Assembly (NCBI GenBank): GCA_030141605.1
Contig: JAQGDQ010000049.1
Location: forward strand, 62,001-126,000
Source: Tubiluchus corallicola
Lineage: Eukaryota; Animalia; Priapulida
Direction: 5' to 3'
DNA: 64,000 nt
The translations under genes were made by a program, and so were the position numbers. Below, one piece after another: positions 1-64,000 of the stretch. The first letter of the stretch is position 1, and every line of letters starts with the position of its first letter. The notes beneath the pieces are model-generated. The model saw nothing but the letters and a program-made list of their open reading frames with translations. It was not told where the DNA came from and ran no database searches.

Positions 1-3000
1 CTACAAGTTGCTGTTGATGCTAAAGTTAGCTGTACTAGCCTGGTTAGATTGGGCAAACGTGGTAATGGTATCCATCCCCTGAAGGTGACTATGCTTAGCT
101 CTAGTGATCGGAAACGATTTTTAAAAAACTGCAGCAAATTTGGGGCAACATGAGGAATTGAAAGATGTTTATGTTCACAGGGATATTAGCCCTTTAAAGA
201 GGGAAGAAGTGAAAGCACTGGTAAAGGGAAAAACAGGCAGTGTCAGATATAATGGGAGAACAAGTAAAATGCACAATAAGAGGCAACAGGGTAGTAAAGG
301 AAGCTGGAGGGACCTGGCATCAGGGTCCAGATATACAGTAAATGATGTTGTGACACCTACAGTTTTTTATTCAGCACTGGCACAAAAGCCATGTTTTGTA
401 TACTAATATATACGCGTTGTTGAATAAAAGGCGTCACTTTTGATTGCTAATACTAATAATTCATCCGATATTGTTTGTATTTCAGAATTTGTACCAAAGA
501 ACTGTGCTTTACCTCGTACAAGAATGTGAGTTACAAATTGATGATTTTGCCCTGTTTTCAACATGAATAGATATAAATGCGGAGTTTTGATTTATACGAG
601 GAAGCACTTAAAAGCAACTACTAGTGAAGTGAATAACTGGTGTACTTTCGACGAATGCTGTTGGGTTGAGATAAATTTAACCAAGGGCAATGATCGACTC
701 TTACTGGGCTGTATTTACAGAAGTCCAAATAGAAGGGAATGATGATAACAATGCTAAACTCACCAATGATTTCATGAAGGTTTATGAAAATTCAAAATGT
801 TCTCATATATTAATATGTGGAGATTTTAATTTTCCGGAAATAAGTTGGATTGATGAAACTATCTCTTGTGATGAAGATCACCCAGCTTGTCAGTTTTTGG
901 AGTGTCATTGGGACTGCCTCCTCTATCAGCATGTTAAAACACCAACAAGAATTCCCAGTAATCAGACTGCAAATATATTGGATTTTGTTCTGTCTAATGA
1001 GGAGGGAATGGTAAGAAATCTTCAGTTAGATGCACCAATTGCATTTAGTGACCATGACACAATAATTTTTGAGTTTGTTGGACATTCTCAATATGGCAAC
1101 AATCCATTTGTGACTAAACACAGATTTGACAAAGGCAGCTATGAGGGGATGAGACATGATTTAGTTAATATGGACTGGATAGCCAATGCTTCTGGTTTCA
1201 ACGTTGGCAGGTACTGGAGTTTTCTTAAAAACTAACTTAAAGATGAGATGGAGGCACATATACCAAAGCCTGTAACTACACCTAGCAAGAGTAAAAGGCC
1301 GTTATGGATGAACAAATCTGCAGTGGAGAAGGTTAAGTCAAAACATCTGGCTTATAAAAAGTATCTTAGCTCGAGGGATACAGATGACTATAAGGAATAT
1401 GCTAAATGTCAGAACCAATCCAAATGGGCATGTAGATCAGCTATTTATAATTTTGAAAGGAGAATTGCTGCAGAAGCTATTATAAATCCAAAAGCTTTTT
1501 TTTAGCTATGCTAATAAGAATCTGCGTACGAAGACTTCGGTACCCGACCTTCAAAGATCAGATGGCACTAAGGCAAAGACTGATCTAGAGAAGGATGAAG
1601 AACTTAATCTATAATACCTGACTTTCCAGAGACAGTTATGAACAATTTAATCATCTCAGCAGACATAATACAGTCTAAGCTTCAAACATTGAAACCATGC
1701 AAGTCACCAGGAATTAATGGTATCCATCGCAGAGTATTAAATGAAATACAAGAGCACATCACTGAACCGTTGGTTAAGCTTATGAACAGATCTCTCCAAG
1801 AGGGGAATGTCCTGCACGAATGGAAAAATGTCAGAGTTAGTCCCATCTTTAAAAGTGGTAACAAATCTAACCCCAGCAATTAGACCAGTTAGCTGACGAG
1901 TGTTGTCTGCAAGCTTTTAGAAAGTATTATAAGGAATCATATGATGACTCATTTGGTGAACAATAATTTACTTAGTACATGCCAGTGCGGTTTTGTAGGG
2001 GGTGGGGCAAATCTTGTATCACTCAGCTTTTAGGGTGCTTAAACATATGGACATCTATCTTGGAGAACGGTGGATGTATTGATGTTATTTATATGGATTA
2101 TGCCTTCAACAAGGTTGGCCATGAAAGGTTGTTAAAGAAGTTAGCTGGATTCGAAATTAACATGGCGCTTTATTAACGTGGATTCGAAATTTTTTTATCT
2201 GGCTGGAGTCAAAGAGTTGCTGTCAATGGTGTTGAGTCAAGTTGGGCAGATGTAACTTCGGGACTCCCACAAGGTAGTGTATTCGGCCCAATTCTCTTCA
2301 TCCTGTTCGTAAATGATCTACCAGATGAATTGCACTCAACACTGAAGATGTTTGCTGATGATACGCACTTGTTTGCAGATGTGTCTAATGAGGACAATAT
2401 GAGAGAGCTTCATCTTGATTTGCAATGTATGGAAAGCTGGGCAAATCAATGCCAACTAGCCTTCAATGCTGAGAAATGCAAAGTGATGCATATTGGCAGA
2501 AACAACCTTGCTGATGAACATAAAATGAACCTACATGGGGTAGAGGTGTCATTAGCAAATAGTGATGTAGAGAAAGACCTTGGGTACATGTTGGGCTAAA
2601 GACCTTGAGGTACATGTTGACAATCAGCTCAAGTTTAAAAAACACGTTCAACTGCAAGTCAGTAAAGGTAACAAGTTGTTGGGGTTGATAAGAAGAATCA
2701 CAGTAAAAAAAGATAATATTGCCCTACTGTATAAGCCATTGGTGAGACGCTTATTAGAATATGGACATGCTGTAACTTACCCTCGCTATGTCAATGATTA
2801 TAAATTGCTTGAGCCACAAGAATGATTCTTGGGCCAAAAGAATTGAACTATGAAGATCGCTTGGCAGCCATTAAACTACCATCTTTACATTATAGAAGAG
2901 CAAGAGGTGATATGATAGAATGCTACAAGTTTATTCAGGGTGCATACAACAATCCATTTCCCTTTGAAGTTGATGGCATGAGTAGGACTAGAGCGCATAG

Positions 3001-5256: not shown

Positions 5257-5350
5257 TTAGGGTTAGGGTTGAGGTTAGAGTTACGGTTAGGGCTAAGGTT
5301 AGGGTTAGCGTTGGGCATTTAAATTGTGTGGGAATTGTAATCTCCTTCCG
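5257..5350 (+). repeat. Degenerate (TTAGGG)n tract inside a dispersed repeat, copy 1
   Basis: ttagggttagggttgaggttagagttacggttagggctaaggttagggttagcg followed by tttaaattgt...ttgtaa..tccttcc; the same flank recurs at ~16640-16672. Confidence 0.7.
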
Positions 5351-16559: not shown

Positions 16560-16672
16560 TGTTAGAAGTAAAGTTAGACTTGGCGTTAGGATAGGGTTTT
16601 AGGGTTAGGGTAAGGGTTAGTGTTAGGGTAGGGTTAGCGAATTTAAATTGTTTGAATTTGTAAATTCCTTCC
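16560..16672 (+). repeat. Degenerate (TTAGGG)n tract inside a dispersed repeat, copy 2
   Basis: ttagggttaggggtaagggttagtgttagggtagggttagcg followed by tttaaattgtttgaatttgtaaattccttcc, matching the flank at 5318-5350. Confidence 0.7.
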
Positions 16673-27224: not shown

Positions 27225-28799
27225 TTAACGTATCAGTAAAATTTCGAGCCACAGAAAGAGAAAGAAACTCGAGTTACTAACGGTAGTTGTACTTGCATTT
27301 TTGACAGATGCATGCAAGCCACTCGTTCTGGCACAATTAAAATCTGAAAGCTTTAACTGTTCGTTGGGTACTAGAGGTTCCCAGCAATCTACAAAAGATG
27401 CACTCCACTTGATTTCCTTTGTCCAAACTGCATTGCAGTCACAAATTAATCGACTTTGTAATAACGCAAAAACCACTGTGCTAGGGCTAACGTGTGGGTG
27501 CAGGTCAGGTGTCGTCATGCTGCTTATTTTTGTTCTAAAAAACTGGACGGAACGTATTGCAGGGTTATTAGACAGATCCAAATTGGCTATGGTCAATTCA
27601 TAGCAGTCAAAAATGGCAATTGTCTGCAAATTCTCCATTCTGCGAAATGCATCACGATGAACAAGTATTAAATTTTTCATGTTCAACATTCGAAAGTTAA
27701 CAATTGACCCATGTACGTCATCTTTTCCGAGAAAATTCATTCCACTATTCCTTATTATCAACGTTTCGACATACTTTCCTTTCAGAAATTTTTGTGGCAA
27801 CTGTGAATAACTATAGAACAAGATCTTGACTGTTAGTGGGACATCAGCAACTACTGGCAATGATTCTGAAATTTTTTCCAGGTTTGAGTAATCGAGATCC
27901 ATCTGGTTGCCGTTGCATGTCAGGATGTCTGGCGTAAAAGTACAGCCTAAACTCTCGGCTACTTTGTAATGCCCATTTTCAGTAGTTGTCTTGGTGGTTG
28001 AAATTTCTGTAGGTTTTAGGGTTGTCGAAGGTATAAAAGTTGACGTACCATCGGGACAAAAATCATCAAGGGTATGAATCAAAGTCCCCTCGACATATTT
28101 TCCTCTGGCATTGGGTAGTTGGGCACATTCTATTGAAGACTCTGAATTCCATGTCTCTATTTTCATCCAAACAGTTCTGCAGTCACAAATCAAAGGATTT
28201 CGGCGGAAAAAAATTCGTACTTTTTCAAAAACAACGTGTGCATGAAATGTTGGCATATCCGCTGTAATGATACCTGTATTGACTACACTCATTACCTGAA
28301 TCATTAGACTGTTAGACAAATCCAAATGTAGTTGCTTCAAATTTGGACAGTCATTGATGCTGATCAACAACAACATTTCCAAATTACTGAAAGCCTGGTG
28401 GTGTATGCTCGCCAAATTCTTAATCTTTGTTATTCTAATACTTGTAACATAATTAGCTAGAAGAAAGTTTTTTTCAATTCTGATCAGATTGTCAGCATTT
28501 ATTATGTCGACTCGTGAAACTTCTGTGCCTTCTAAAAATCTCAGAGGCAGAGCATTGTCTTCATAATCCCTTACCGAAACAATATTTACTTTTGTACCAT
28601 TAAAATATAATACTTCTCTTAGTTCCTCCAGAATAGCTTGATTAGTTGTTTTGCCATTACCACCACAAGTTATGTAAATGGAAATTGCTGTTTGCGTTCG
28701 TGAACAGGATCTTAAGAACGCTTTACTTGTGCCAAAATCAAATATGATTAGTATAATAAGTATGATGCCAAATTTTGCAGCACGGAAAGTTTGCAACAT
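27225..28799 (-). CDS. Intronless secreted leucine-rich-repeat protein, two tandem LRR/LRRCT modules, probable GPI anchor (524 aa from first ATG)
   Basis: Uninterrupted 1.6-kb ORF (track start 28853 is TTG; first ATG at 28799). N-terminal hydrophobic signal KFGIILIILIIFDFGTSKA. LRRs such as NLASIHHQAFSNLEMLLLISI. Two LRRCT caps NPLICDCRTVWMK and SRLICDCNAVWTK. Thr-rich linker. C-terminal S/T stretch plus hydrophobic tail SFFLFLWLEILLIR with no cytoplasmic domain. Confidence 0.85.
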   Translation of the reverse strand: MLQTFRAAKFGIILIILIIFDFGTSKAFLRSCSRTQTAISIYITCGGNGKTTNQAILEELREVLYFNGTKVNIVSVRDYEDNALPLRFLEGTEVSRVDIINADNLIRIEKNFLLANYVTSIRITKIKNLASIHHQAFSNLEMLLLISINDCPNLKQLHLDLSNSLMIQVMSVVNTGIITADMPTFHAHVVFEKVRIFFRRNPLICDCRTVWMKIETWNSESSIECAQLPNARGKYVEGTLIHTLDDFCPDGTSTFIPSTTLKPTEISTTKTTTENGHYKVAESLGCTFTPDILTCNGNQMDLDYSNLEKISESLPVVADVPLTVKILFYSYSQLPQKFLKGKYVETLIIRNSGMNFLGKDDVHGSIVNFRMLNMKNLILVHRDAFRRMENLQTIAIFDCYELTIANLDLSNNPAIRSVQFFRTKISSMTTPDLHPHVSPSTVVFALLQSRLICDCNAVWTKEIKWSASFVDCWEPLVPNEQLKLSDFNCARTSGLHASVKNASTTTVSNSSFFLFLWLEILLIR

Positions 28800-30326: not shown

Positions 30327-30826
30327 CTAAATGCTTGTATGTTCTGGATTGTCATGTAATGTTATTATAACTCTTTGTATATTTGAGAATTATTCTGACT
30401 TTGAAAATGGTGCTCAAACGTACCTGAACGACAATTTTTTAAATTCTGTTGTTATATATAGTTGTCGAGTGCCACTATATATTGATGTCATCAGAGAGTT
30501 TAAAAAATTCTGTTAAATGCCCGAAGTTTAGCATTTGTACTAATCCTAAGAACAACATCAGTACAGAGATTACACATGTGAATTGATGGAAAGCCAAGCT
30601 GTTGTGACTCAGAGCGGAGTGGGTTATATTGTACACAACTGTTCTGATTATTGTACCTGACTTTGCAAGTCAACAAGACAAGATGCAAACAACCAGACCA
30701 AATCTGTCCACTTTTGTTCATGTATTAACTTTTGTGAATCTAAAAATTTATATATCGTAAAACTCCACACCTTTCTTATCTCTATAATATTTTCAAAACT
30801 TACAAAAATGCCTTTGTCGAAAAGGA

Positions 30827-31980
30827 GCTAAACCAAGAAAAGTTGCAGCCACTTTCAGATAAAGTAGTTATATCAAGAAGAGTTGAAGCTTCATTCAGAT
30901 AACTAAAGCAGCAAAACAAAGAAGAATTGTGGCTGGATTCATATCACGCAACTAAACCAAGAAGAATTGCAGCTCGATTCAGATCATGCCGCTAAACCAA
31001 CAAGAAATGCAGCTGGATTCAGATCATGCAACTAAACCAAGAAGAGTTGCAGCTGGATTCAGATCATGCAGCTAAACCAAGAAGAGTTGCAGCTGGATTC
31101 AGATCATGCAGCTAAACCAAGAAGAATTACAGCTGGATTCAGATCTTGCAGTTAAACCAGGAAGAGTTGCGGCTGGATTCAGATCATGCAGCTAAACTAA
31201 GAAGAATTACAGCTGGATTCAGATCATGCAACTAAACCAAGAAGAGTTGCGGCTGGATTCAGATCTTGCAGTTAAACCAGGAAGAGTTGCGGCTGGATTC
31301 AGATCTTGCAGTTAAACCAAGAAAAATTGCAGGTGGATTCAGGTCATGCAGCTAAACCAAGAAGAGTTGCGGCTGGACTCGGGTCACGCAGCTAAACCAA
31401 GAAAAAATGCAGCTGGATTCATATCGTGCAACTAAACCAAGAAGAGTTTCGGCTGGATTCTGACCATGCAGCTATAAACCAAGAAGAGTTGCGGCTGGAT
31501 TCATATCGTGTAGCTAAACCAAGAAGAGTTGCGGCTGGATTCTGACCATGCAGCTATAAACCAAGAAGAGTTGCAGCTGGATTCAGATCATGTAGCTAAA
31601 GCAAGAAAAATTGCAGCTGGATTCATATCGTGCAACTAAACCAAGAAGAGTTGCGGCTGGATTCAGATCATGCAGCTAAACCAGGAAGAGTTGCGACTGA
31701 ATTCAGATCATGCAGCTAAAGCAAGAAGAGTTGCGGCTGGATTCAGATCTTGCAGTTAAACCAAGAAAAATTGCAGCTGGATTCAGATCATGCAGCTAAA
31801 CCAAGAATTGGAGCTGGATTCAAATCATGCAGCTAAACCAGTAAGAGTTGCGGCTGGATTCAGATCATATAGCTGAACCAAGAAAAGCTGCAGGTGCATT
31901 TAGATAACGTAGCTAAACTAAGAAGAGTTGCAGCTGGATTCAGACCACGCAGCTAAACCAAGAAGTGTTGCCGTTGCATT
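30827..31980. repeat. Minisatellite, 40-bp unit, ~29 copies
   Basis: Consensus gctaaaccaagaagagttgcagctggattcagatcatgca; units start 40 bp apart (31031, 31071, 31111...). Edges are more diverged than the centre. Confidence 0.95.
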
Positions 31981-35590: not shown

Positions 35591-37734
35591 ATGAATACTA
35601 ATATGTAATGATAAACCTAAAACTTGCACGTCCAAAATCGCAAAACGGTAAAGAGGCAAAGTTTTGAAAAATTCTACTTCATGCATTAGCAGTCATAGCT
35701 CTATTTACAGCCATGTTTAGTCGCAAATGAGGGTCTACGTATTGTAAGTAAGATACTCGTTAACAACGTGTTAAGTTACATTATCTTCTTCCGCGCATGC
35801 TTTGCAACTTAAACCGTTCTAACGCACTTTAAGGGTTGCAGATTATCTTTCGCCTACAAGAGAAAAGCTTTCATTTATCCGGAATAACTTCATATACAAC
35901 ACGTTAGCCCATTTTCGAAGAAACAGCATATCCAAAGTAGAAACTGATTTACTGAATGTAATTGAGGCAAATAGCCATGTCGATTCTTTTGCAACCACTA
36001 AATTGTTTGTAATGGAAAAGTTGTTTCTGTTTAAGCGTGAATTTTTTCTTATTTTTAGTTGAAAAATAGCCTTCGCATCGTTACATCCTTCGCATTGCCT
36101 TGTAAATCTGAACATGCCGTCGACTCTACATTGCAGTATCAGCATGACATAAACTAATTTCCTCACTTTAGTCAAAACGTTCCCAGATGACTATATGGCC
36201 CACGCTAAAAGCCTTTTTGCAATAGAAAACCAATAAACTTGTACAATAAAAGGATAACGGTGCAGTAATCAGAAAATCAGTTTATGCAGAATGCGGACGA
36301 CCGCAAAGTCATTGGTTAGTTAAAGATATAATAAGTTTCTTTTAATTTGACTTAGAATCATACACTTCACACATTTAAAATGTTTACCACGCACAAGGAC
36401 AAAAACTAAAACTATTAAACGGCACAAAAGCTATACAACTAAAGTACTGTGTTGATTCAATTCTTAAAACCAATTACAATAAAAAATGTTAGCATGACCA
36501 AACCAAATGGTTAAGATGTTCGTAATACTTCTACCTTTTTGTTTGCTTGAAAATGCTTTTTATTTATAGACCAGACCGTCCAACCAAAGGTGCAATTTCA
36601 TATTCATTGGCTTTTGCAAATAACACGACTGGCTGTTAAAAATTGGTTGAAAATTGCTTAATATAATAACTAACAGCTACATTATAGGGTTTAATTGAAA
36701 GGAAAACCCTTTACTTATATTAAAACTAAAATAATTCGTCTTGACATTTTGTGCTTTTCGCATCACCTACATGCTGTTTTTGTGTTCTGAATGTGTAGCA
36801 ACAGCACTGCGTAAAACTTGTAAATTTAAAGTACAAAAAGACCGTTAAGCGCAGCCATTTTAACGGTAAGTTGTTTAAAACAAATTTAGATTATAAAGAG
36901 TAAATTTTAAAAAATAATCAAAGCATTCCTAGTGTACACTTCACTATCTACCTAAGAAAAAAGTATAAATTACCTTTCCTTGTCAATAAGATTAATAGTA
37001 TGTTTTCAGTGAGCCAGTGGTGCAAACTGGGACTGTGAGTCCAGTGACGTGTTACCACTTGGCGCCAACGTTTAAATTGGTAAGAATTTCTTTTATGGAT
37101 ACATAAGTCTTTCAAACAGGTAAGCGTAATGCAAAGTAGTATAATTTCGCATGGAAAGTTTATTGTACCTACTTTAAAATTGTCTTTTCCTTTAAAACCG
37201 TCAATTCTCTAAGGAGATATATCTGAGGAAAGATGCTATACAAGGCAATTTATACAATTAACTTACATGCATGACGACTCATAATTGACTGGCGTGAATC
37301 CAGCCTATTTCATGTCAGGTTCGCAACGTCTCTGTATACAATAAATTCCTTTCTTACGATGGCCGTAACATTGCAGAAGCTGGCAATTTACCAACTTGCC
37401 GTTTCACGCAAACTTGTACAAAAATTAATTCAATTTTTATTGATAGTTATGAGATTTATGTTGAATTTATCGCAAAATCTAATAACATTTTTGCTATATT
37501 GATGTCATTTCAGCCACACAATTTGAATATCGTAAAATCATGGGTTAAAAGTCTAAGGCTGCAGTAGCCCCCAGAGTAAACTATTGCCTGAACAATTCGA
37601 GTCGATTGGGGGATTGGACAGCTGGACTAAACTAGCCAAATCTTTTATAGTCTCAAAATGGCGACTAAAGTGGGTGCGGCGGCGACAGAAACATGCGACT
37701 TGCGAAAGTAAAAAAGATCGACCATTATGCTCAC

Positions 37735-38895
37735 ACATGCCAGTTTTACCTCTGCCATAGTAGACGGTTGATTAAAAGCATCATTTGTCATTTCATTCAT
37801 ATTAAAACTTTGTACATCACGTTCCACGTTGTTAAACCATTCCTGGTCAAAATTTTTATTTTGCAAGTGCGTTCGTTCGAAAAAAGTTTTGTATAAAATT
37901 TTGCATTTGTCACTCTCCTCAGTGTAATACCTTCCGTGTACTTTCAATATATCTACCTGATTTTCCATAGATTTTGCAAAAACCTTTCGATAGGTCTTCC
38001 AGAAATTTTTACGTTGAGGAACGTTCAGCTTTGCAGTATTTTTAATTACCCCCTTATTTAGTTCTTCATACAATACCTTTTGAAAACATTCTTTTTCCTC
38101 AAAACGCGTATTTCGATTTACATAATTGGAATGTCCTTTGTATTTTTTTGCGCTCTCGTACTTCATTAGACAAGGCTGATAACTCAGGGGTCCAAAAAGG
38201 CTCGCTATATCTCGACACTATTTTCGTATCCAGAGCTTCACTGCAGCTTGCTTTGATTGCTTCTAAGAACAGTGTCTATACAGATGCCACATTTTTGTTT
38301 TCTATTTCAACACTGAACAATGGAAACTACTCTCTCAATTTTCTTTCGAGCACCGATGACCAGTTATTTCAATCACTGTGTTTGAAGTCATATCTTGCGT
38401 TGCGCTGGACTGGCTTTCTGCTTTTAATGTTGAATTCTGTAATTATGGGAAAATGGCCCATTTGCGGGGCTCCCAAAAATAGTTCAATGTCTTGATTTAC
38501 TTTTTGAGAAAGAAGTTGAGATGCTAATTCACTACTGGCCACTATGATGTCAATCTTACTTTTACCAGTGATAGATTGGAATGTTTCTGTATTAGGTGCT
38601 ACTACGGTCAATTTACCATAGCTGCTTTGAAGTAAGTTCATAGTCAGTCTTCCACAATCAGTGGTCATTTGTGTTATTATCCCAGATATAACTGCGGGCA
38701 CTCAAGTCGTGGCGTATCAGGTGTGATACAAGTAGAACTAATTAATTTTCTTGTTCCTTGCACTTGTGCAACGACCCACAATATATCAAATTCTGATGAT
38801 TCGAGCTCGCTAACTCTGCTGCAAGTGATACCACTTTTTACAAACAGCGCACAGTCTCCAGAATAATTTACCGAAACTTTCGGAAATGTTTTCAA
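37735..38895 (-). mobile_element. Decayed Jockey/I-like LINE ORF2 5' part (endonuclease and linker, lacking RT)
   Basis: Frameshifted pieces: YSGDCALFVKSGI, TFQSITGKSKIDIIVASSEL, GHFPII (SDHxPI motif), PFWTPELS, FWKTYRK, FNQPSTMAEVKLA. Confidence 0.7.
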
Positions 38896-50800: not shown

Positions 50801-53800
50801 ATGTCAGAGGTTGATTATCCTATGTGTTGTGGAATGTTATCGAAGTTGCTTGTGTGGTTTTCTTTGGCTAGTGTTGTGGATACCATTTCTTGGCCATATT
50901 TTCCCATTGAAGAACTATGCTCTACGGTGTTCAAGAATAATTCTAGTGATGATATTTTAATAAGAGACATAAACGCGACTGTCATTTCTTCGCCATCCCC
51001 AAATTACGAAAATGTACCAGATGATGCTGATAATTGCACTAACTATATAAAATTCATCTACCCTAATGACAAAGTATCAGCGAAGCGCCATTATGTCATT
51101 CGTTTTATAAAGTTAGAGCTTGACTGTTCTAATGACTACATTCAGATAGGGCACGGTGATCCAGTTGTTTGGGACGACACTATATGCGTTCATGATGGAA
51201 CACCTTTCACTTGGTACGTGACCAACAGCAAAATGGTTGGTCACATTCACGTGAGATTTCAAACCGATGGCATCAAAACTAGTCATAGCGGATTTGAGTT
51301 TTGGGTCACTTCCGTACCAGTGGTCCGTAACACCTGTAAAGATAACCTATGTCAAAATGGCACGTGTGTCACAAATCCGAAAAATTTCTTAGGAGTTTAC
51401 GTGTGCCAGTGCGAACTTGGCTTTACGGGCTTTTACTGTGAAACAGATTTCAATGAATGCGAATGGGATCCTTGTTTAAATGACGGAACGTGTAGTAATA
51501 TACCTGGATCATATATATGTATTTGCCCTACCGGCACGGCTGGAGAATGGTGTGAAAAAGATACAGCTAATGAGTGCACTTCGAAACCTTGCATTTATGG
51601 AGAATGCAGGGATGGTTTTGGCTCCTATACATGTTCATGTCAGTTAGGCTACGAAGGAATTAACTGCCAAATCAATGCAGACGAATGTGCTTCAAGTCCG
51701 TGCTTAAATAATGCAACGTGTTTAGATGGTGTGAATTCATACAGCTGCTCATGTGGAGCAGGCTATACAGGCATCTACTGTGAAACAAACATAGATGAGT
51801 GTGCCTCAAATCCATGCTCAAATGGGGCAACATGTGCAGACGGAGTAAATTCATGGTCATGTATATGTGTATTAGGCTATGTGGGTGTTACTTGCAAGGA
51901 AGAAGTTAATGCTTGTGATTATGGACTGTGCAGAAACGGTGCAACATGCATAATTGAAAATGATCTTTCTTATAAGTGCCTATGCGTAGCAGGTTATACA
52001 GGCATTGCGTGTGATGAAAACATTGATGAGTGTATCTCAAATCCATGTTTAAATGGTGCAACTTGCTTAGATAATGTGAATTCATATAATTGTTCATGTG
52101 TAGTAGGTTATACAGGCATTACCTGTGACATAAACATTGATGAGTGTGTTTCAAGTCCATGTTTAAATGGTGCAACATGTTTAGATAATTTGAATTCCTA
52201 TAATTGCTCATGTGTAGCAGGTTATATGGGAATTTACTGCGAAAGCATTGACGAGTGTGCGTCAAGTCCATGTTTAAATGATGCAACATGCTTAGATGAT
52301 ATAAATTATTATAACTGCACATGCATTGCAGGCTATACAGGCAAAAACTGCGAATTAAACATAGACGAATGTGCCTCACTTCCATGTTTAAATAATGCCT
52401 CGTGCTCAGATTATTTAAACTCATATAACTGCTCATGTGTAGCTGGATATGTAGGCATTTTCTGTGAAATAAATGTTGACGAATGCTTCTCAAGTCCATG
52501 TTTACATGACGCAACTTGTTTGGATGATGTCAATTCATACAATTGCTTGTGTATAACAGGCTATATAGGCACCTTATGTGAGACAAATGAAAATGACTGT
52601 GCCTCAGATCCATGTTTAAATGGTGCAACATGTTTAGATGGTGTAAATTCGTACAATTGTTCCTGCTTACCTGGTTATTCAGGTATCAACTGTGAAGTAA
52701 ACATAAATGAATGTACTTCAAGTCCCTGTTTAAATGGTGCAACTTGTTTAGATGATGTGAACTCATACAACTGTTTATGTGTAGCAGGCTATGAAGGCTT
52801 CTCCTGTGAACTAAATACGAATGAGTGTGCCTCAAGTCCATGCATAAATGGAGCAACATGCTTAGATGGTGTAAATTCGTACAATTGTTCCTGCTTACCT
52901 GGTTATTCAGGTATCAACTGTGAAGTAAACATAAATGAGTGTACTTCAAGTCCCTGTTTAAATGGTGCAACTTGTTTAGATGATGTGAACTCATACAACT
53001 GTTTATGTGTAGCAGGCTATGAAGGCTTCTCCTGTGAACTAAATACGAATGAGTGTGCCTCAAGTCCATGCATAAATGGAGCAACATGCTTAGATGGTGT
53101 AAATTCGTACAATTGTTCCTGCTTACCTGGTTATTCAGGTATCAACTGTGAAGTAAACATAAATGAGTGTACTTCAAGTCCCTGTTTAAATGGTGCAACT
53201 TGTTTAGATGATGTGAACTCATACAACTGTTTATGTGTAGCAGGCTATGAAGGCTTCTCCTGTGAACTAAATACGAATGAGTGTGCCTCAAGTCCATGCA
53301 TAAATGGAGCAACATGCTTAGATGGTGTAAATTCGTACAATTGTTCCTGCTTACCTGGTTATTCAGGTATCAACTGTGAAGTAAACATAAATGAATGTAA
53401 TTCAAATCCATGTTTAAATGTTGCAATATGTTTAGATGACGTGAATTCATACAGTTGCTCGTGTGCAGCGGGTTACGTAGGCACCTACTGTGAAGTAAAC
53501 ATTGATGAGTGCGTCTCAAGTCCATGTCTAAATGGAGCAACGTGTGTAGACAGTGTAAATTCATGGTCGTGTATATGTTCTTCGGATTATACTGGTACCA
53601 CTTGCGAGGAAACAATAAGTGATCTTGCTTGCGGGTTGTGTTTTAATGGGGCAACCTGCGTGGGAAACTTCAACTCCTTCACGTGTGTATGTTTACCAGG
53701 TTACACAGACATCAACTGTGAAACAAATATAGATGAATGTAAATCTAAACCTTGTCTGAATGGTGCAATATGCGTAGACAGTATCAATTCGTATGTTTGC

Positions 53801-56800
53801 AATTGTGTTTCAGGATATACAGGCACCAACTGTGAAAAAATTATTGATTTTTGCAGTCTCAACCGTTGTTTGAATGGTGCAACATGTACAAATCTTGCTA
53901 GCTCATTTAGATGTACATGTCATCCAGGTTATGCAGGTACTTTCTGTGAAACAAATGTAGATGATTGTGCATCTAATCCCTGTTTAGATGATGAAACTTG
54001 TGTGGATGGTGTAAATTCTTACAGCTGCAATTGTTTATTAGGTTATAAACAAATCTGCTCTCAAGGAAAGTGTTTGTCTGGTCGCTTAAATACTACAGTT
54101 TTTGAGTATGGTTTGAGCTGCACTTCCTTGCCACTAACAGCGTGTGAAATCGAGCAAGCAAATACTAATCTTCACTTGTTAGGAGTTGATAAAGAAATTG
54201 CTCAAGTTGATCGACCAGAGTGTTCTGAAGCGGGTCATAGTCCTTTGCAATTTCATGATAGCCTTGGTTTCACTTGGTGCGTGTTGCAGTCTGGCCAGGC
54301 ACTTCCTGGAACTAAGAGGCAAAAGGGAATCTTACCTGTTGACTGTAATACTTTGTCGAGTAGATCAGGTATTTGTCCTAACATCACTGAAAATTTTCGT
54401 GACATTGATTGTTCTGCTCAAGATCATCAAGGTTTGTCATGTAGCAGTGATAATGACTGCTTACCTAAACACAAGTGTTGCATGATTGGTGCGTGTGGGA
54501 AGATTTGCACTTTCGCTGTGTTAAGCTCAGGAAAGCTTGGGGTATGTCCGATGCGAGATTTCTTACACAAAAGTGAATGCCCAAGTAAGGTCTGTGCAAC
54601 TGATGATGACTGCAGTGGCGATAAAAAGTGTTGCAGGTTTTTTGAATGTGGTTACGTCTGTGTGTCTCCAATTACAATTGAGAATAAACCAGGTAGATGT
54701 TACGATGCAAGTACATTTATTAATTTGGAGTGTCCTACCAAATTTTGTAATAGTGATATTAACTGTCCTGCTGACCAAAAATGCTGTTATTTTGATGGAT
54801 GTGGTAATGTATGCTACATGCCCATAATGAATGGAAATAAGCCAGGCCATTGTTATGATCCTAGTAAACTTGATGGTTTTCAATGCCCAAGTCAATTCTG
54901 CCAGGATGATCAGGATTGTCCAGCTAAAAACAAATGTTGTTGGTTTGATGCTTGCGGTAGTGTTTGCTCTACTCCGATAGAGTCAGAAGAAAGGCGGGGA
55001 GTTTGTTTCATTAGTGCTGATTTTGGACATTCATGTCCAAAGCAAACTTGTTACAATGACATAGATTGTCCACCAGAAGAGAAATGTTGCTTTTCTGCAG
55101 AATGTGGAAGTGTCTGCAGTAAACCATTATACAATGGTGTAAAGCCTGGTATATGCCCAAACTTTGTAAATGATGCTAAGTGCCAACGGAGGTCTTGTAT
55201 TAATGACGTTCACTGTCCTGGGCTACAGAAATGTTGTGGAACTACATCTTGTGGCGATGTTTGCTTAATGCCAGCAGTTGCTGGTTTACAAGATTGCAAA
55301 TTTAGCATAGAAAACTGCAAGAAGAAATGTGTATTTGGGTATTTGGAAGATACTAAAACACTTTGCCTTACATGTGATTGTAAACCATCTCCATGTAAAA
55401 ATGTTAGGTGCCCGGGTTCATTAACATGTGAAGTAACAAAAGTAAAGTGTGGTAGCTCTTTTTGTCCATACCTGGCAAACTGCGTTGAACACTTGAAGGA
55501 AGGAAAGTGTCCCAGAGCAGACAAATTTCTTGAAAGAAGCTGTCCATCTCAGCTTTGTAGAACTGATGCAGGTTGTCCGGGAGAGGAAAAGTGCTGCTTA
55601 TTTCGAGGATGTGGGAGAGCATGTGTTTCGCCCGAAATGACAGCATGCCAGATCGAACAAACAAATTTAAATTTACAGCTGTTAACTGCGGAAACTCCAA
55701 GAACATCCAAGTCAAAATGTCTCAGTAATGGAAATTATAAACCACTACAGTTTGACGAAAATTTCAGTTCTTCTTTGTGTGTTTCTTATAATGGCATTGC
55801 AATTCCTGGAACAAAACAGCAAGTTCGAAGCTTGCCCTTTGACTGTAATGTTGCCAGAAATAAAAGCGGTGTTTGTCAAAGGTCCACTGTGCTAAAAAGT
55901 AGCGAGTGTCCAACTCAAGTTTGTATTAGTGATAGTGAATGCCCAGGAGATAAGAGATGCTGCTATTTCGACGCATGTGGAAAGGTTTGTTACACCCCAA
56001 TATTAAATATAAATAAACCAGGAGTTTGCCACTCACATTATAATGAAAGTGAATGTCCAATCTTGCCTTGTATTAACGATGTTGACTGTTTAAAAGAAGA
56101 AAAGTGTTGTTATTTTGAAGCATGTGGACATGTTTGTGTTTCTCCCTTGAAACCTACTAAGAAACCAGGGTCCTGTTATAGATCTAGCGAATTTAACGGT
56201 AAAAGCTGCCCCACATCATTTTGCAATGTCGATATTGACTGCCCTTTTGAGGAGAAATGTTGCCATTTTGCAGTGTGTGGCAGAGTGTGCTATAAGCCAC
56301 TGATGCTGGGAGTTAAACCTGGAATTTGTTTTGATGAAAACTACCTTAGTGGCAAAAGATGTCCCCGCAACACGTGCAAGACTGATGCTGACTGCGACGG
56401 ACTTGAAAAATGTTGTCAGTTTAGCAAGTGTGGAAACGTGTGCACAAGGCCTTTATTATCCGTAAATAAGCCTGGTATATGTTATGGATATGATGAGTTT
56501 GAATTCAGAAAATGCCCAGTTGCATCATGCCACAATGATATTCACTGCCCTGCAGAAGAGAAGTGCTGTGCATTTAGAAAATGTGGTAATGTTTGTTATA
56601 AACCAATGACACTTGTTGAAAAGCCAGGGAAATGTCCATCATTAATGTTCAGAAACAGAGCATGTCCTACGCAGGTTTGCAAAAATGACCTTGATTGCCT
56701 TGGAGAAAAAAAGTGTTGCGAACTTGTTTCTTGTGGTCAAGTGTGTTTTACGCCCCTTAACACTGCATGTAACTTTAGTATTTATGATTGTCAAATAGAC

Positions 56801-59800
56801 TGTATCTACGGCTATGTAAATGATGCTGAAGCTCTCTGCCCTACTTGTGCATGCAAGCCTTCTCCATGTTTTGGTATTAAGTGCCCAGAATTGCAAAAGT
56901 GTGAAGTTATTGACACTGATTGTAATACTTCTTCTTGTCCAAAACTTGCTAAATGTACATCGGTTAAAAAAGCCAGATTATGCCCTTCTCCTAGGCTTTT
57001 TGACAGCAGTCCCTGCCCCATTCAAGCATGTTATTTTGACAGAGATTGCCCAACAGAGGAGATATGCTGTTATTTTACGGCATGTGGTGGCGTCTGCATT
57101 ACACCTAAATTAACACCTTGTCAGATAGAATATGCAAATGCTCATTTAAAACCTTCTGTTTCTGTAATTCCTAAATGCTTGGATAATGGTGACTTTAAGC
57201 CAATCCAGAATTCGCATACTACAGGCTATTCATGGTGTGTCAGCAAACATGGTACGCCAATTCCAGGAACAAAGCAACCACCAGAATCACTGTTTATTGT
57301 TTGTAACTTTGGTCAAAGAACAGAATCACCCATATGCTCTTTTAGCATGGACAAATGCCCTAACAAGTGCATTCATGGCAACTTAGTCGATATGAATACC
57401 TTGTGCCCAATTTGCGACTGTAAACCGTCTCCATGTCAACATGTAAGTTGCTCAGCTTCACAACAATGTGAGCTGGCAGATGTTGATTGTGGTTTCGAAT
57501 TTTGTCCTAAACTAGCGAAGTGTTCTAACGTTTTTAAACCAGGAGTGTGTCCAAGGAAAAGTACAGCTTTTGATAGTACCATTTCTGGTCAACCCTGTGT
57601 TGATGATTTTGAGTGCCCAGCAGAAGAAAGATGCTGTGAACGAGTTTGTGCAACTCCAGTACTCACTGTGTGTGAAATTGAACAAGCTAATTTCAAACTT
57701 ATGAGTCAAGTGTCAGATTTTGATAGTAAAACTGCAGATGCCTCTCAGCCTAGTTGTCATGTCAAGGGATACTATAATACTATTCAGATTAATAAAAACC
57801 GTGGTATTTTTTGGTGTGTTAACAAAGATGGCTTCCCCGTGCCTTATTCAAAACAAAAATTGGAATTATATGTTTCAGTTTTTACAAGTTGCCATTCAGT
57901 AGTAAACTATGCAAGACATTGTTATGATACGAATTATTTCGAAAAACAAAAGTGCCCCTCAGTATTATGTAAAAATGACAGTGATTGCCCAGTATCTGAA
58001 ATATGCTGTCATTTTGATGTATGTGGGAAAGTTTGTTCTCCTCAACTGTTGTCTGTTAACAAACCAGGTATTTGTCCTAAGCCAAGTAAGCTCAGCCAAA
58101 GCGATTGCCCCCCTCACTCTTGCAGCAATGATATTTACTGCCAAGGTTCACAAAAATGCTGCCGATTTGATCATTGTGGAAGCGTTTGCATTAGACCTGT
58201 GCCAGTTGTAAATAAAACAGAGTTATGTCATATTGAAGATAAATACGAAAGCATACAGTGTCCCACCGAATCATGTGAAGTAGACCATGACTGTACAGGT
58301 AACAAAAAGTGCTGCTTTTCTCAGAAATGTGGAAACATTTGTTTATTGCCCATATATTCTGAAAACAAGCCAGGTCTTTGTCCTACTGCTAAAAGCAGTT
58401 CAGGCAAGTGCCCTACCAAAGCTTGTGCTAATGATGTAGAGTGTCCTCTAAAACAGAAATGCTGCCAAGTTGCAGATTGTGGAATGGTATGCTCTGAGCC
58501 ACTGCTTGATATAAGAAAATCAGGCATGTGCCCTGAAAAAGAAGGAATCACAAAATGTAATAATCGTAGTTGTAATGCAGACACCGATTGTCATGGTGTG
58601 GAGAAATGCTGCACATCTGCTTCTTGTGGAAAAGTATGCTCTATGCCAATTGGTGTTAGACATCAAGTTTGTGAAGTGTCTATTGAAGAATGCCCAGTTA
58701 AATGTGTGCATGGGTATGAATTTGATAACCAAACACTTTGTCCCACTTGTAACTGCAAACCTTCTCCGTGCAATAAAATTAAATGTGGTGAATCAGAAGA
58801 ATGTATTCTAATCTATGTGGATTGCAACAGTGATTTTTGTCCTAAACTAGCAAAGTGTTTAGTTATGAGGAAAATTGGAACTTGTCCCCAAAATGTGACC
58901 ACCACTGTGAAGCTTGGTTTGCCTATGCACTGTACAGTTGACAGTCAATGTAGTGCAGAGGAAAAGTGTTGTCAGTTTGAGAAATTCGGGACTATATGTG
59001 TAACTCCATGGCTATCTGTTTGCCAAACTGAATTTACAATATTCATTGCCAAAATGCAAAGAAAGTCAAAATATTTACCAGAACTCTACAGACCACTTTG
59101 CTTAAAGAATGGAGATTATAATACTCTACAAACTCATAATAATTTTTCTTGGTGCGTTACACAAGAGGGAATACCAGTTCCTGGTACAAAAAGGTCACTT
59201 GATTTGTCACCATTTGACTGTGCCGTTTTGCAGGAAAAGCCTGGAATTTGTAACGGTTTTGGAAAGTACAGTAGTGTTAACTGTCCTAGACATTCTTGTG
59301 TAACAGATATTGATTGTCCAGCAGAAGAAAAATGTTGTGACATTGAGCATTGTGGAAAAGTTTGTCACACGCCATTATTAAATATTAACAAGCCAGGAGT
59401 ATGCCAACCTCCAGATTACTTTAAGGGAAAAAAGTGCCCATCACAGCCATGCACAAATGATATTTATTGCAAAGATAACAAAAAGTGTTGCCAGTTTTTT
59501 GCTTGCGGACATATTTGCTCTGATCCCATCACAGTTGAGAGCAAGCCTGGTACTTGTTATGGATCAAAAAAACTAAAAGGTAAAAATTGTCCACAGCAGC
59601 AATGCAGTAATGACTTTGGCTGCCCATCGTCTATGAAATGTTGTACTTTTGAGGGTTGTGGACGGGTTTGCTATACAGCCAATTTGGTACAAAGTACTCA
59701 AGGTTTTTGTTCTGAAAACAAAGAAATTGTGGAATGTCCACAACAGTTGTGTGAAAGTGACTTTGATTGTTACTCTGGCGAAAAATGTTGTCATTCTGAT

Positions 59801-62800
59801 GAATGTGGAAATGTTTGCTCTGTCCCCGTACTGTCTATAAACAATCCAGGTATCTGCCCAGATTTTAATATATTTCACGACAGTACTTGTCCTTCACGAA
59901 CTTGCCAAAATGATATCGATTGCAAACTTACAGAAAAGTGTTGCCTATTTAATAAGTGTGGCAGCGTTTGCTACACCCCTATCTTATCTGGTATAAAAGA
60001 AGGAGTTTGTCCTGTGGAAACTCTAAGCAATGACTGTATTGGTCAACCATGTCTGAATGATGTTGACTGCTTCGGTAGGCAAAAATGCTGTAACATATTA
60101 TCATGTGGGAAAATATGTGTGCAACCACCAAAATTTGGTCTGGAGGCATGCCATTTTGAAGAAAAAGATTGTGCAAAAAAGTGTGTTTATGGATACCAAA
60201 TTCATTATGAAACGCTATGTCCTACTTGCAAATGTAAAGACTCTCTTTGTGAAAGTATAAAATGTAATAGGACACAAGTGTGTAAAGTTGTAGATTTGGG
60301 CTGCAATAATAATTACTGTTCAAAACTTCCAAAATGTTTTGATGTTCCAATAAAACCTGGAACATGTCCAAATACATATAACTTTACCAGAAACGATTCT
60401 CTACTTTCACCTTGTGACAACGATGCAAGCTGCCAAGCTGAAGAAAAATGCTGCCATTTTGTAAATTTTGGTTGGATTTGCATTACTCCTTTATTAACGG
60501 CATGTCAGGTAGATCGAGCTAATGCTCATTATAAGATATCAAACACTAGAAGCACAGCTAACGAAATATATGTACCACAGTGCGATAATGGTGGCATGTA
60601 TAGTGAAATTCAAATAGATAACATTACTGGCTATTTCTGGTGTGTTACCGCAGAAGGAGATCCACTTCCTGGGACAAAAAAGCTTCTGGAATCATCTTCT
60701 CCTAACTGCACTGCAGTAACAGCCAAAAAGGGGTTTTGCTCTGATTTTTTAAACATTGATTTTACCAGCTGTTCAAACCAATGCAGCAATGATAGTGATT
60801 GTCCAATGGATGAAAAGTGCTGCTGGAATGATAAATGCGGTAGTGTATGTTCTAGTCCATTGCTGAATGTTAATAAACCTGGCATTTGTTATGCTGCCAA
60901 CTTTTTTCAAAGAGCTGACTGTCCATTGCAGACATGTGCTAATGACATCGATTGTCCAAATTTGCAAAAATGTTGCCGGTTCAGAGAGTGTGGATGGGTT
61001 TGTTCATCTCCTTTAATAATTACAAGCAGGCCTGGAACGTGTTATAATGTAAAGAATGTGGATGTTGCATTATGTCCACCTCAGTCTTGTAGCAGTGATA
61101 ATGAGTGCCCACGAAAGGAGAAGTGCTGCTGGCTCAAAGAATGTGGCTTTGTTTGCATTGACCCGATACAGAACAAAGCTAAACCAGGAACTTGTCACAA
61201 TTCTGAAAAACTTATGGACAGTGAATGTCCAAGCACATTTTGCAAAGTGGACAGTGATTGCCCAAATGATGACAAGTGTTGTTTTTTTAATGGCTGTGGA
61301 AATGTCTGTTTCCAGTCAATTCTTTCAGTAAACAAACGAGGAATTTGTCCTAATCCCAAATCATTAAAATATGGAAATTCATCTTGTCCATCTCTGTTTT
61401 GTTACAATGATATTGACTGTCCATTAGAAGAGAAGTGCTGCAATATTGAGAACTGTGGGAGTATCTGTCTCATGCCAATAACATTCATAGCAAAATCTGG
61501 ACTTTGCCCCAAAAGCTCTGACAACAGAAGCTGTTTTGGGCAACCATGTAGTAATGATATAGACTGCCCTGACAAACAAAAATGTTGCCAATCTGATTTT
61601 TGTAGTAGCAGGTGCACTAATCCAATACATAACACTTCTCTGAGCTGTGCTGTTAACATTGAAGACTGTCAGCTTTCTTGTCTTTATGGGTATACTGTGG
61701 ACGACATTACTCTTTGCGCAATTTGTCAATGTAAGCCTTCCCCGTGTGAAGATGTTCAATGTCCTCCATTACAGGAATGCAGAACAGTTGATTCATCAGA
61801 GTGTGGAATGGCTTTTTGTCCAAAACTTGCAAAATGTGTGTCTAGTAATTTGTGGACAACAAATGCAGGAAACTTGTTAGAAGTGAGAGGAGTTTGCCAA
61901 GATTTTAATACTTTTGATGGCAGATTATGTCCTAAAAAAGCTTGTGAGCACGATGATAATTGTGGCCCAAGAATGAAATGCTGTAACTTTAATACATGCG
62001 GGAATGTATGTCATACTACGGTGTTAACAGCTTGCTTAATTGAAGAATTAAATGCCGACTTGAAGATGTCTAATTTAAATTCCTTAGCAGAAGGTGTTTT
62101 TCGACCTCACTGCACAAATTCCGGTGTTTACAGTCCCGTTCAATTTCATCACAGCGGGAGTTATTCTTGGTGTACAACAGAAGCAGGTCAACCAATTCCT
62201 GGAACGACACAGTCGATTGGGTCCTTACCTATTGCTTGCGACGTCTTCAGAAGTAAACCTGGCAATTGTTTCGATTCTGATAAGTTTAAGGAAGATAAAA
62301 GGGCATGTCCAATACAGTCATGTGAAAAAGACAGTGATTGTTTGGGAGACCAGAAATGTTGTTACTTTAATGCATGTGGATATGTGTGTATTACTCCGTC
62401 ACCACTATATATCAATAAAGCAGGAATATGCCATGAACCAAAATATTTTAATGGTACACAATGCCCAGCTAAGTCATGCACAAATGATATTCATTGTCCA
62501 GCAGATCAAAAATGTTGTCACTTTGTTGCATGTGGTAGTGTTTGTTCTGCTCCGATATCAAATAAGGAGTTTAATTTATGTAACGACATCTGCAAATGTG
62601 TTAAAAAACCCTGCTCATCAGATGCATACTGCACTGGTGACCAAAATTGTTCCTATTCTCAAAGATGTGGCACTGTCTGCAATGTGGTTGTACTAAATAA
62701 AAGTGAGCATGATGGTTGCTATAATAATGCTAATAAACGGATAGAATGTCTTAATGATCAAGGTAATGTTTTGAAGTGTGAACATAACAAAAACTGTCCC

Positions 62801-64000
62801 AATGAGAAAAAGTGCTGTACTTTTAATGCTTGCAATTCATTATGTACAAGTTTAGCATTATCGCTGAATAAACGGGGGATTTGTCCTCCTTTTCTTTATC
62901 CAAGTGACAAGTTTTGTCCTAGTCAGGCATGCTATAATGACATTGATTGTCCTTCAGATAAAAAGTGTTGTTATTTGGAAACATGCGGACCTGTTTGCTA
63001 TAGCCCATTGACGTTTGAACTGAAGCCTGGCTTATGTATTGACAGAATTGGCTTAAGCAAGTGTCCGCTTCATAAATGTGTTAAAGACTCGGATTGTCAA
63101 GGATTAGCAAAATGTTGTCCATCTGCCCGATGTGGCAATGTTTGCACAATTCCGATACTGAATGGCTTACAGATCTGTATGTACAATATAGAAGAGTGTC
63201 CTTTAAAATGTGACTATGGATACACACTTGATGATGAGACACTTTGCCCCATTTGCAAGTGTAAACATTCTCCATGTGAAGGTGTCGTCTGTCCAGGTTC
63301 GCAGGTTTGCAATACAGTTATTATAAAGTGTGGAAGCGTGTCTTGTCCTGCCCTAGCAAGATGTGAGGACATTCAAAGAAGTAAAGTTGGCACTTGTCCT
63401 GAATTCGGTAATTTGACAAGAAGTGAGTGTCCAAAGTTGTTGTGCAACGCAGATGCAGATTGTCCTGCCGAAGAAAAGTGCTGTCCATTTACAGAATGTG
63501 GAAGAATTTGCTCCATACCTATATTAACTGCTTGCCAAGTTGAGCAAACAAACAGTGATGTATTACTCCTACAGCCGTATTCAGGAGCTTACATGCATCG
63601 TCCTCAGTGTTTAAGTAATGGAGAATACAGTCCATTGCAGTTTCATAATACGATCGGTTACGCTTGGTGTGTTCTGCAACATGGTCAACCCATTCCAGGG
63701 ACAAAACTGTCAGCAGACTCTATACAAGCATCAATGTGTGTGGAAGCTAGACGGAGTAGTCGAGTATGTTGGCATTCTGCAGCATATAAGTTTGGTAAGT
63801 GCTCAGGGCAATCGTGCCACCATGATAATGAATGCAATGAAACAGAATTGTGCTGTGAGACTGCCAGCTGCGGAAGGGTGTGCTCCATCCCTTTGACCAT
63901 TGGCCCAAATTTATGTGAATTTGAAGAAGCTGACTGTCTTACGAAATGTATCTATGGTTATTCAGTTCACAAGACAACTCTTTGTCCTTCTTGTAAATGC
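50801..64000 (+). CDS. Giant intronless secreted cysteine-rich protein: signal peptide - CUB - 24 EGF - (thyroglobulin-1 / WAP / antistasin-like) super-repeats; 3' end outside window (>=4400 aa)
   Basis: Manual translation of + frame 2: in-frame TGA at 50783, ATGs at 50801/50822/50834 ([17 protein letters not shown] signal-like), then no stop through ...TTLCPSCKC at 64000. Every + strand track ORF in this span lies in another frame, consistent with frame 2 never closing. Confidence 0.93.
50918..51310 (+). other. CUB domain of the giant protein
   Basis: C...[11 protein letters not shown]...DNCTNYI...[17 protein letters not shown]...TIC...IHVRFQTDG...SGFEFWV matches CUB hallmarks (SPNY, CxxDY, VxFxSD, GF). 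Confidence 0.85.
51332..54058 (+). other. Array of 24 EGF-like domains, mostly calcium-binding Notch/fibropellin type
   Basis: Repeats such as [37 protein letters not shown] with ~114-bp period. Confidence 0.95.
52634..53399 (+). repeat. Near-identical coding tandem repeat, 228-bp unit (two EGFs), ~3.4 copies
   Basis: ttagatggtgtaaattcgtacaattg starts at 52634, 52862, 53090 and 53318; the only difference noticed is a synonymous GAA/GAG. Confidence 0.95.
54137..64000 (+). other. Protease-inhibitor-type super-repeat region: 8 thyroglobulin type-1, ~43 WAP, 8 antistasin-like and 7 six-Cys modules
   Basis: Tg1: TACxxE...PxCxxxGxYxxxQ...WCVxxxGxPIPGT...C with first Cys at 54143, 55646, 57119, 57671, 59021, 60503, 62033, 63533. 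WAP: KPGxC...CP...CxxDxDCPxxxKCC....CGxVC. Antistasin-like: C.....C...CxxGY..D..TLCPxCxC. Confidence 0.9.

Follow-up and report, generated by a model that had tools for sequence, protein, structure and literature searches.

What is encoded by a reading frame that runs without a stop through the last 13.2 kb of a priapulid contig, and are its many modules with protease-inhibitor folds there to inhibit proteases? The question is raised by a 64,000-nucleotide stretch of Tubiluchus corallicola (assembly GCA_030141605.1, contig JAQGDQ010000049.1, positions 62,001 to 126,000, forward strand), hereafter the window, in whose coordinates all positions are given. The first-pass annotation of this DNA described a CUB-EGF head fused to a huge multi-class protease-inhibitor array. 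The analysis presented here points to a secreted protein, locked by disulfides, that would form a structural strand in an extracellular coat or matrix, a reading to which we assign a probability of roughly one half, and in which the inhibitor-type folds likely serve mostly as protease-resistant building blocks.

The reading frame

Read directly from the DNA, the plus-strand frame is open from 50786 to the end of the window (4,405 codons), and 4,400 residues are counted from the ATG at 50801, which has an A at position -3. This confirms the at least 4,400 uninterrupted codons reported initially, with no in-frame stop from 50786 on. The frame had also been called hidden; it is indeed absent from the default list of open reading frames (ORFs), merely because it runs off the window edge. 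The product seen amounts to 479 kDa, with its 3' end open, and contains 612 cysteines in 4,400 residues (13.9%). The remaining five frames of the same stretch contain 185–507 stops apiece, and the probability of zero stops by chance at such a base composition (about 10^-134) rules out a chance ORF.

Six super-repeat blocks were compared with one another (15 pairs). The proportion of synonymous differences (pS, 0.68–0.83) is at or near saturation and the nonsynonymous divergence (dN) is lower (0.52–0.69), so that the duplications are old and the protein has been kept under selection. The frame is conserved and protein-coding, with a signature of purifying selection between its repeats that is observed directly. 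A simple repeat artefact was ruled out, since the repeated units are merely 33–44% identical in pairwise comparison. Internal splicing was also rejected after a crude motif filter returned 11 donor-like and 0 strong acceptor-like sites; of the single exon proposed earlier, what is established is that the visible part of the frame is unbroken, and no more than that.

The head

The first 28 residues are probably a signal peptide, residues 8–26 being the most hydrophobic 19-mer of the whole protein (1.77). Residues 40–172 are probably a divergent CUB domain. The ESM Atlas gave CUB at 0.92 (20/30 matches) with a recognition score of 2238, which lies below the 2300 line and makes the domain probable rather than proven. 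In these residues CUB (PF00431) gave no Pfam, PDB sequence or phmmer match, and folding of the head from its single sequence, without an alignment, produced no usable model (pLDDT 31). A CUB motif match and an acidic calcium triad in the same region were judged against what we take to be the consensus of the domain.

The EGF array that follows comprises 24 modules by parsing and 23 stretches by Pfam EGF, and its top matches include Notch, Crumbs and Jagged-type proteins. The run is acidic (isoelectric point, pI, 4.05), and the calcium-binding pattern fits 18 of the 23 parsed repeats; this pattern and those for O-fucose and O-glucose were self-made from the consensus. An exact 228-bp triplication, placed within the otherwise diverged array, represents either a very recent expansion or an assembly effect, and the count of 24 may therefore depend on the allele or on the assembly.

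The repeated tail

The module order of the tail, likewise read directly, is Tg1 - WAP(n) - antistasin-like - 6Cys - WAP, present as seven full units plus one partial, with internal WAP arrays (n) of 6, 6, 0, 5, 6, 6 and 6 in units 1–7 (Table 1). The domain list of the first-pass annotation is upheld, with the CUB as probable, and its count of eight or more such units becomes seven complete ones and a partial eighth, unit 3 being without an internal WAP array.

Parsing by the eight-Cys pattern gave 43 WAP modules (39 stretches by Pfam, PF00095), three of them short of one Cys pair and one degenerate. The eight Tg1 domains are all of the four-Cys type 1B; they were missed in the whole-protein scan and, when cut out, all scored above the PF00086 cut-off (26–58 bits against 20.6). 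The antistasin-like modules match PF02822 in seven of the seven scanned, all below the cut-off (13.8–21.0 against 21.2), the eighth, at the window edge, lying outside the scan, and no PDB antistasin match was obtained. Their homology to antistasin is argued from their position in the cassette, at which relatives pass PF02822. The 6Cys module gave no Pfam family above cut-off; the best PDB match of its first half is the eggshell-membrane module CREMP (E 2.9e-4, over 16 positions only).

All 612 cysteines fall in even sets by module (2+4+144+2+460) and, as counted directly, every unit contains an even number of them. Three WAPs are without both Cys2 and Cys7, which we take to be disulfide partners. 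The even sets and this joint loss make it most likely that the disulfides are formed inside single modules. The tail is not cationic (pI 6.3; Lys plus Arg about equal to Asp plus Glu per unit), and no transmembrane segment was found in the 4,400 residues seen.

Table 1. Position and make-up of the frame and of its modules in the window
Feature	Position	Strand	Basis
Open reading frame, at least 4,400 aa	50801..64000	+	stop-free frame, in-frame stop just before 50786
Probable signal peptide, aa 1-28	50801..50884	+	hydrophobicity; in-frame Met at 1, 8, 12
Predicted divergent CUB, aa 40-172, 4 Cys	50918..51316	+	ESM Atlas prediction
24 Notch/fibropellin-type EGF repeats	51326..54058	+	Cys-pattern parsing and Pfam
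Exact 228-bp triplication, two EGF modules per copy	52712-53394	+	sequence identity
Head-tail linker, one Cys pair	54059..54136	+	Cys assignment
Unit 1: Tg1 - WAP x6 - antistasin-like - 6Cys - WAP; 501 aa, 72 Cys	54137..55639	+	
Unit 2: order as unit 1, WAP x6+1; 491 aa, 72 Cys	55640..57112	+	
Unit 3: Tg1 - antistasin-like - 6Cys - WAP, no WAP array; 184 aa, 22 Cys	57113..57664	+	
Unit 4: WAP x5+1; 450 aa, 62 Cys	57665..59014	+	
Unit 5: WAP x6+1; 494 aa, 70 Cys	59015..60496	+	
Unit 6: WAP x6+1; 510 aa, 72 Cys	60497..62026	+	
Unit 7: WAP x6+1, one degenerate; 500 aa, 72 Cys	62027..63526	+	
Unit 8, cut at window edge: Tg1 - WAP - antistasin-like	63527..64000	+	

Inhibitory sites

Those human WFDC domains that act against proteases place 6 residues between Cys1 and Cys2 and 8 between Cys2 and Cys3, and a shorter spacer is believed to be too tight for the reactive site (PMC11408880). 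In inhibitory WAPs the scissile bond near Cys2 has a Met beside it (PMC9680087). None of the 43 WAPs has this elafin/SLPI-type 6/8 spacing. The Cys2–Cys3 spacer is four residues long in 37 of the 43, a Pro directly follows Cys2 in 31/40, and Met is present at Cys2+1 or +2 in none of 40. The Cys1–Cys2 loop is variable, but no more so than other exposed positions.

The antistasin-like modules share an altered spacing, 6/3/8 in all eight copies, with K, Q, P, P, A, Q, P and L as the residue after Cys2. We take this to be the P1 position of antistasin, with a site of the Arg-Met/Val/Leu type. Arg is found there in none of the eight, Lys-Lys in one and Pro in three; the Arg-Met/Leu pair after the second Cys (0/8 here) occurs in 9 of 21 modules from seven relatives. 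The antistasin-like modules appear to depart more clearly from their relatives than the WAPs do.

No Kunitz module was detected in the 4,400 residues seen, either by Pfam or by Cys assignment, and there is no room for one because all 612 cysteines belong to other modules; Lustrin modules are absent from the same residues. Furin-type R-x-K/R-R sites number 0 in the 4,400 residues, and the 12 KR/RR pairs have no position recurring from unit to unit, so the suggestion that the protein is processed into modules found no support. Nor did that of dozens of diversified inhibitor modules, with non-canonical spacing in 43 of 43 WAPs, no canonical antistasin site and no Kunitz domain. The label of a multi-class protease-inhibitor array overstates the sequence support.

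The Tg1 domains stand apart, in that all eight may be candidate inhibitors of cathepsin-type proteases. Foldseek matches of the predicted Tg1 model include thyroglobulin, p41 and saxiphilin (in the cassette model the antistasin part is unreliable, with pLDDT <50 at residues 1–34). Loop 1 spans 23–27 residues in seven of the eight and is thus longer than in saxiphilin and IrThy, for which the numbering of the cysteines implies 19–21; binding is reported to suffer when this loop is enlarged (PMC10889554).

Relatives of the cassette

A profile search with the cassette retrieved 1,430 proteins at E <=0.001 among 1.84 billion, and the best 150 of these 1,430 were examined. Within this set, 19 align without a break between the antistasin region and Tg1, ten of them at E <1e-6: nine are true antistasin-6Cys-WAP-Tg1 matches (33–38% identity), and the tenth, P0195, has EGF where the cassette has antistasin-6Cys. 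The ORF itself holds seven copies of the cassette in the family order. A Pfam scan of 17 matches found Tg1, WAP and antistasin together in 11, six of which have Kunitz and nine Lustrin. Two proteins consist of WAPs only, 32 of them in P0131 and 20 in P0149, and in every one the Cys2–Cys3 spacer is three residues long.

The order of the cassette is that of the arthropod Thy-Atn-WAP family described in PMC3407033. The family is represented in the fly by CG5639, there named DmThy-3, and P0147 almost reproduces the DmThy-3c segment that the paper's supplement shows. PxSPI44 of Plutella has the same Tg1/WAP/antistasin set (PMC5309989), and CG5639 is listed among misregulated genes in a table of PMC3348937. 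With these CG5639-type thyropins (DmThy-3, Tribolium TcThy-2, PxSPI44) the ORF shares the cassette, the module order and the short WAP spacers. Ten relatives of this type are 532–1,854 residues long, with 1–5 WAPs and mostly six-Cys Tg1 domains (38/43 motifs), whereas the ORF has at least 4,400 residues, 43 WAPs in arrays, four-Cys Tg1 in 8/8 and the CUB-EGF24 head, and in the part seen it is without Kunitz or Lustrin. The tail would derive from the CG5639-type family, and is not assigned as a CG5639 orthologue.

A tree of 54 rows was built with at most two junctions per match, matches without adjacent WAP and Tg1 being left out. In it 44 of the 47 other rows lie off the branch that bears the WAP-Tg1 junctions of the ORF, and P0195 groups with the seven junctions of the ORF (80/88); the bootstrap is unsettled in both cases, and one long-branch row lies inside the latter group. 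P0195 (275 residues) is the closest relative among the best 150 of 1,430, with 45% identity over 119 residues. It consists of a hydrophobic N-terminus, EGF, EGF, WAP and a four-Cys Tg1, and its WAP has the derived 10/Pro/4 pattern, which occurs in 31 copies in the ORF and is carried by 2 of 152 other proteins. It differs from the ORF in being small, with two EGFs and without CUB, antistasin or arrays, and may be a fragment or a mispredicted gene; even so, EGF adjoining WAP-Tg1 exists elsewhere.

Another match, P0164 (2,854 residues), is an unusual mosaic in its own right, in which alpha-2-macroglobulin is combined with EGF x9, Tg1 x7, antistasin x6, WAP x4 and Kunitz x2. Like the ORF it unites EGF, Tg1, WAP and antistasin in one large protein; the macroglobulin body and the Kunitz domains set it apart, as do the lack of a CUB by Pfam and of WAP arrays.

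Search for the complete architecture

No full-length relative was found among 237 candidates of 2,420–7,700 residues, and the two proteins returned from 2,290 candidates of 448–2,000 residues, a newt multi-WAP and a limpet WAP/antistasin/Lustrin protein, are not full-length relatives either. Metagenome contigs gave 39 pattern matches, none confirmed, and the ESM Atlas no usable match for the cassette; the longest protein returned overall has 3,196 residues. At least three EGFs together with WAP, Tg1 or antistasin were found in 0 of 272 proteins with an EGF profile that was later judged too narrow, because Pfam showed nine calcium-binding EGFs in P0164. These architecture searches were limited by word matching, by length bands and by the best 150 of 1,430, and are weak evidence of absence. 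In the literature, no paper was found describing antistasin, thyroglobulin type, WAP, EGF and CUB together, within a coverage that largely leaves out subscription journals. An article by Novinec (2006) is said to deal with Tg1 architectures and may list further mosaics.

Within the limits of these searches, neither the putative fusion to CUB-EGF24 nor the WAP arrays, and neither the size nor the unbroken frame, had a counterpart. The combination, at this scale and without introns, had not been recognised as a described protein, and the searches returned none with the full architecture; the order of the tail, however, is known from CG5639-type thyropins, so the tail is not new in kind and the novelty is lowered. 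Its predicted modules make the protein a multiplied version of a known cassette, to which a CUB-EGF head is joined without a break in the frame.

A proposed structural strand and its alternatives

The idea of a giant disulfide-rich extracellular scaffold, put forward at first, is supported, and a putative route to it can be outlined. The signal peptide would bring the protein through the endoplasmic reticulum, and about 305 disulfides would form within modules. The CUB would then anchor or join molecules, the calcium-binding EGF run would act as a stiff spacer, and the units of roughly 500 residues would make up a beaded chain in which the Tg1 domains may give local protection against cathepsin-type proteases. 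As to origin, the gene likely began with the fusion of an EGF array to a WAP-Tg1 module from the CG5639-type family, after which, still long ago, the cassette would have been duplicated in tandem.

There are structural precedents for the parts. Fibropellins and octovafibrin, the latter with 29 EGFs, carry a CUB (C1s-like) or lectin head, followed by a long row of EGFs, and serve as structural fibres of marine invertebrate egg and embryo coats (PMC10336842). Fibropellins combine a CUB with an EGF array; the ORF has 24 EGFs and a probable CUB, but where an avidin-like domain directly follows the array of fibropellins, Tg1 stands in the ORF. The terminal domain of these fibre proteins is avidin-like or a C-type lectin, and they are without the Tg1/WAP/antistasin tail; in addition, the octovafibrin EGFs were not scored as calcium-binding. 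Antistasin-like repeats are in structural use in a leech cocoon antistasin/Notch-repeat protein (PMC7851590), WAP domains occur in cnidarian collagens (PMC12549020), and CREMP and Dumpy are giant Cys-rich structural mosaics of animals (10.1101/2025.09.16.676614). The leech protein, CREMP and Dumpy likewise consist of Cys-rich tandem modules, and CREMP resembles the start of the 6Cys module, but their module sets and order are other ones, and they are functional analogies, not family.

Several points weigh against a structural strand. Each functional step of the route above is inferred, and the signal peptide and the CUB are predictions. The C-terminus lies beyond the window and could include an anchor in the membrane or a block of Kunitz domains, and the part seen has no free Cys or known polymerisation domain, which makes the polymer route a guess. 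The WAP spacing rule is derived from human proteins and may not carry over to invertebrates. Short spacers are moreover family-wide (three residues in 16 of the 27 parsed WAPs of the ten relatives), and are therefore inherited and no loss peculiar to this gene. The predicted Tg1 model matches the fold of the p41 inhibitor (TM 0.72 on target, E 7.9e-4), and saxiphilin, with one type 1B domain, binds papain 1:2 (PMC6584486). The occurrence of the module set on alpha-2-macroglobulin in P0164 ties it to protease control, and an antistasin/WAP-like inhibitor of a sea cucumber is known from a title cited in PMC11310086.

The strongest alternative is a true multi-class inhibitor array carried on an EGF stalk and displayed in mucus, an egg coat or a wound plug, with Tg1 directed against papain-family (perhaps aspartic) proteases and WAP and antistasin modules against serine proteases through shifted loops. 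We consider it possible, if doubtful. The Tg1 domains, all over the Pfam cut-off and similar in their model to p41 and saxiphilin, argue for it, as do the Kunitz domains and Arg-Met antistasins of the family, whose members are catalogued as putative inhibitors (PMC3407033, PMC5309989). The variable WAP Cys1–Cys2 loop could hold a shifted site, but its variability is no greater than that of other exposed positions, and the enlarged Tg1 loop 1 speaks against efficient binding. The array reading is weak because elafin-type WAPs (0/43), Arg-Met/Leu antistasins (0/8), Kunitz domains and furin sites are all missing. Both uses can partly coexist in one molecule. An elaboration of the structural strand, which we regard as unlikely, would give it the role of chief protein in an animal biomaterial that has yet to be described, be it egg coat, cocoon, tube or adhesive. 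It would be a strand of >480 kDa from one giant coding exon, in which an inhibitor family has been turned into a self-protecting fibre, WAP and antistasin being structural and Tg1 still disarming cathepsin-type proteases.

A membrane-tethered surface protein, with a transmembrane or GPI (glycosylphosphatidylinositol) anchor past 64000 and a CUB/Notch-type EGF head engaged in adhesion or ligand capture on a long stalk, seems decidedly less probable. In its favour, the EGFs are of the Notch/fibropellin kind, most of them fit the self-made O-fucose and O-glucose patterns, their top matches include Notch, Crumbs and Jagged-type proteins, and the 3' end does lie beyond the window; 4,400 residues without a transmembrane segment count against it. 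We give little credit to the idea that the short-spacer WAP arrays are the active part and, placed in a barrier or shell matrix, act on microbes or bind mineral in the manner of crustins, omwaprin or perlwapin. Omwaprin also has a short Cys2–Cys3 spacing, WAP domains without an inhibitor site are antimicrobial (PMC9680087, PMC11408880), perlwapin is described, by title, as inhibiting calcium carbonate crystal growth, and the EGF run is acidic, but the tail is not cationic and offers no sites for peptide release. An unexpressed processed copy or an assembly product, which the exact 228-bp triplication, the apparent lack of introns and a frame known from genomic sequence alone might suggest, is hardly credible for 13.2 kb without a stop or frameshift, with units 33–44% identical and dN far below dS.

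Surroundings of the locus

The window has 36% GC and many microsatellites, which, like the endonuclease fragment listed below, is in keeping with an animal genome. An upstream paralogue of the frame was sought in it and rejected, the best tblastn match having an E of only 0.45. A second uninterrupted ORF of 524 residues (27225-28799, minus strand) has a hydrophobic N-terminus, two blocks that by eye resemble divergent leucine-rich repeats (LRRs) with an LRR C-cap, a Thr-rich linker and a hydrophobic C-terminal tail, and gave no Pfam match, whole or as halves; it suggests that unbroken coding exons are not rare in the region. The window further contains a LINE (long interspersed nuclear element)-type endonuclease fragment (690-1235, plus strand; PF14529 at 49 bits), a 40-bp tandem satellite (30826-31971; 28.5 copies, 82% matches), degenerate TTAGGG-like interstitial tracts (5257-5312 and 16585-16637), and a 173-residue ORF (37645-38166, minus strand) without a Pfam match, by eye a retroelement linker fragment.

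Implications

No principle is overturned by this locus, since giant Cys-rich mosaics such as Dumpy and CREMP are already known in animals. The 43 WAPs offer as many natural variants for testing the spacing rule outside mammals, and comparison with a family that retains the antistasin site shows its loss directly. A coding exon of at least 13 kb joining the CUB-EGF head to the cassette would be an instance of domain shuffling across a junction free of introns. If the structural reading is true, the protein would represent a large-scale co-option of inhibitor folds as building blocks.

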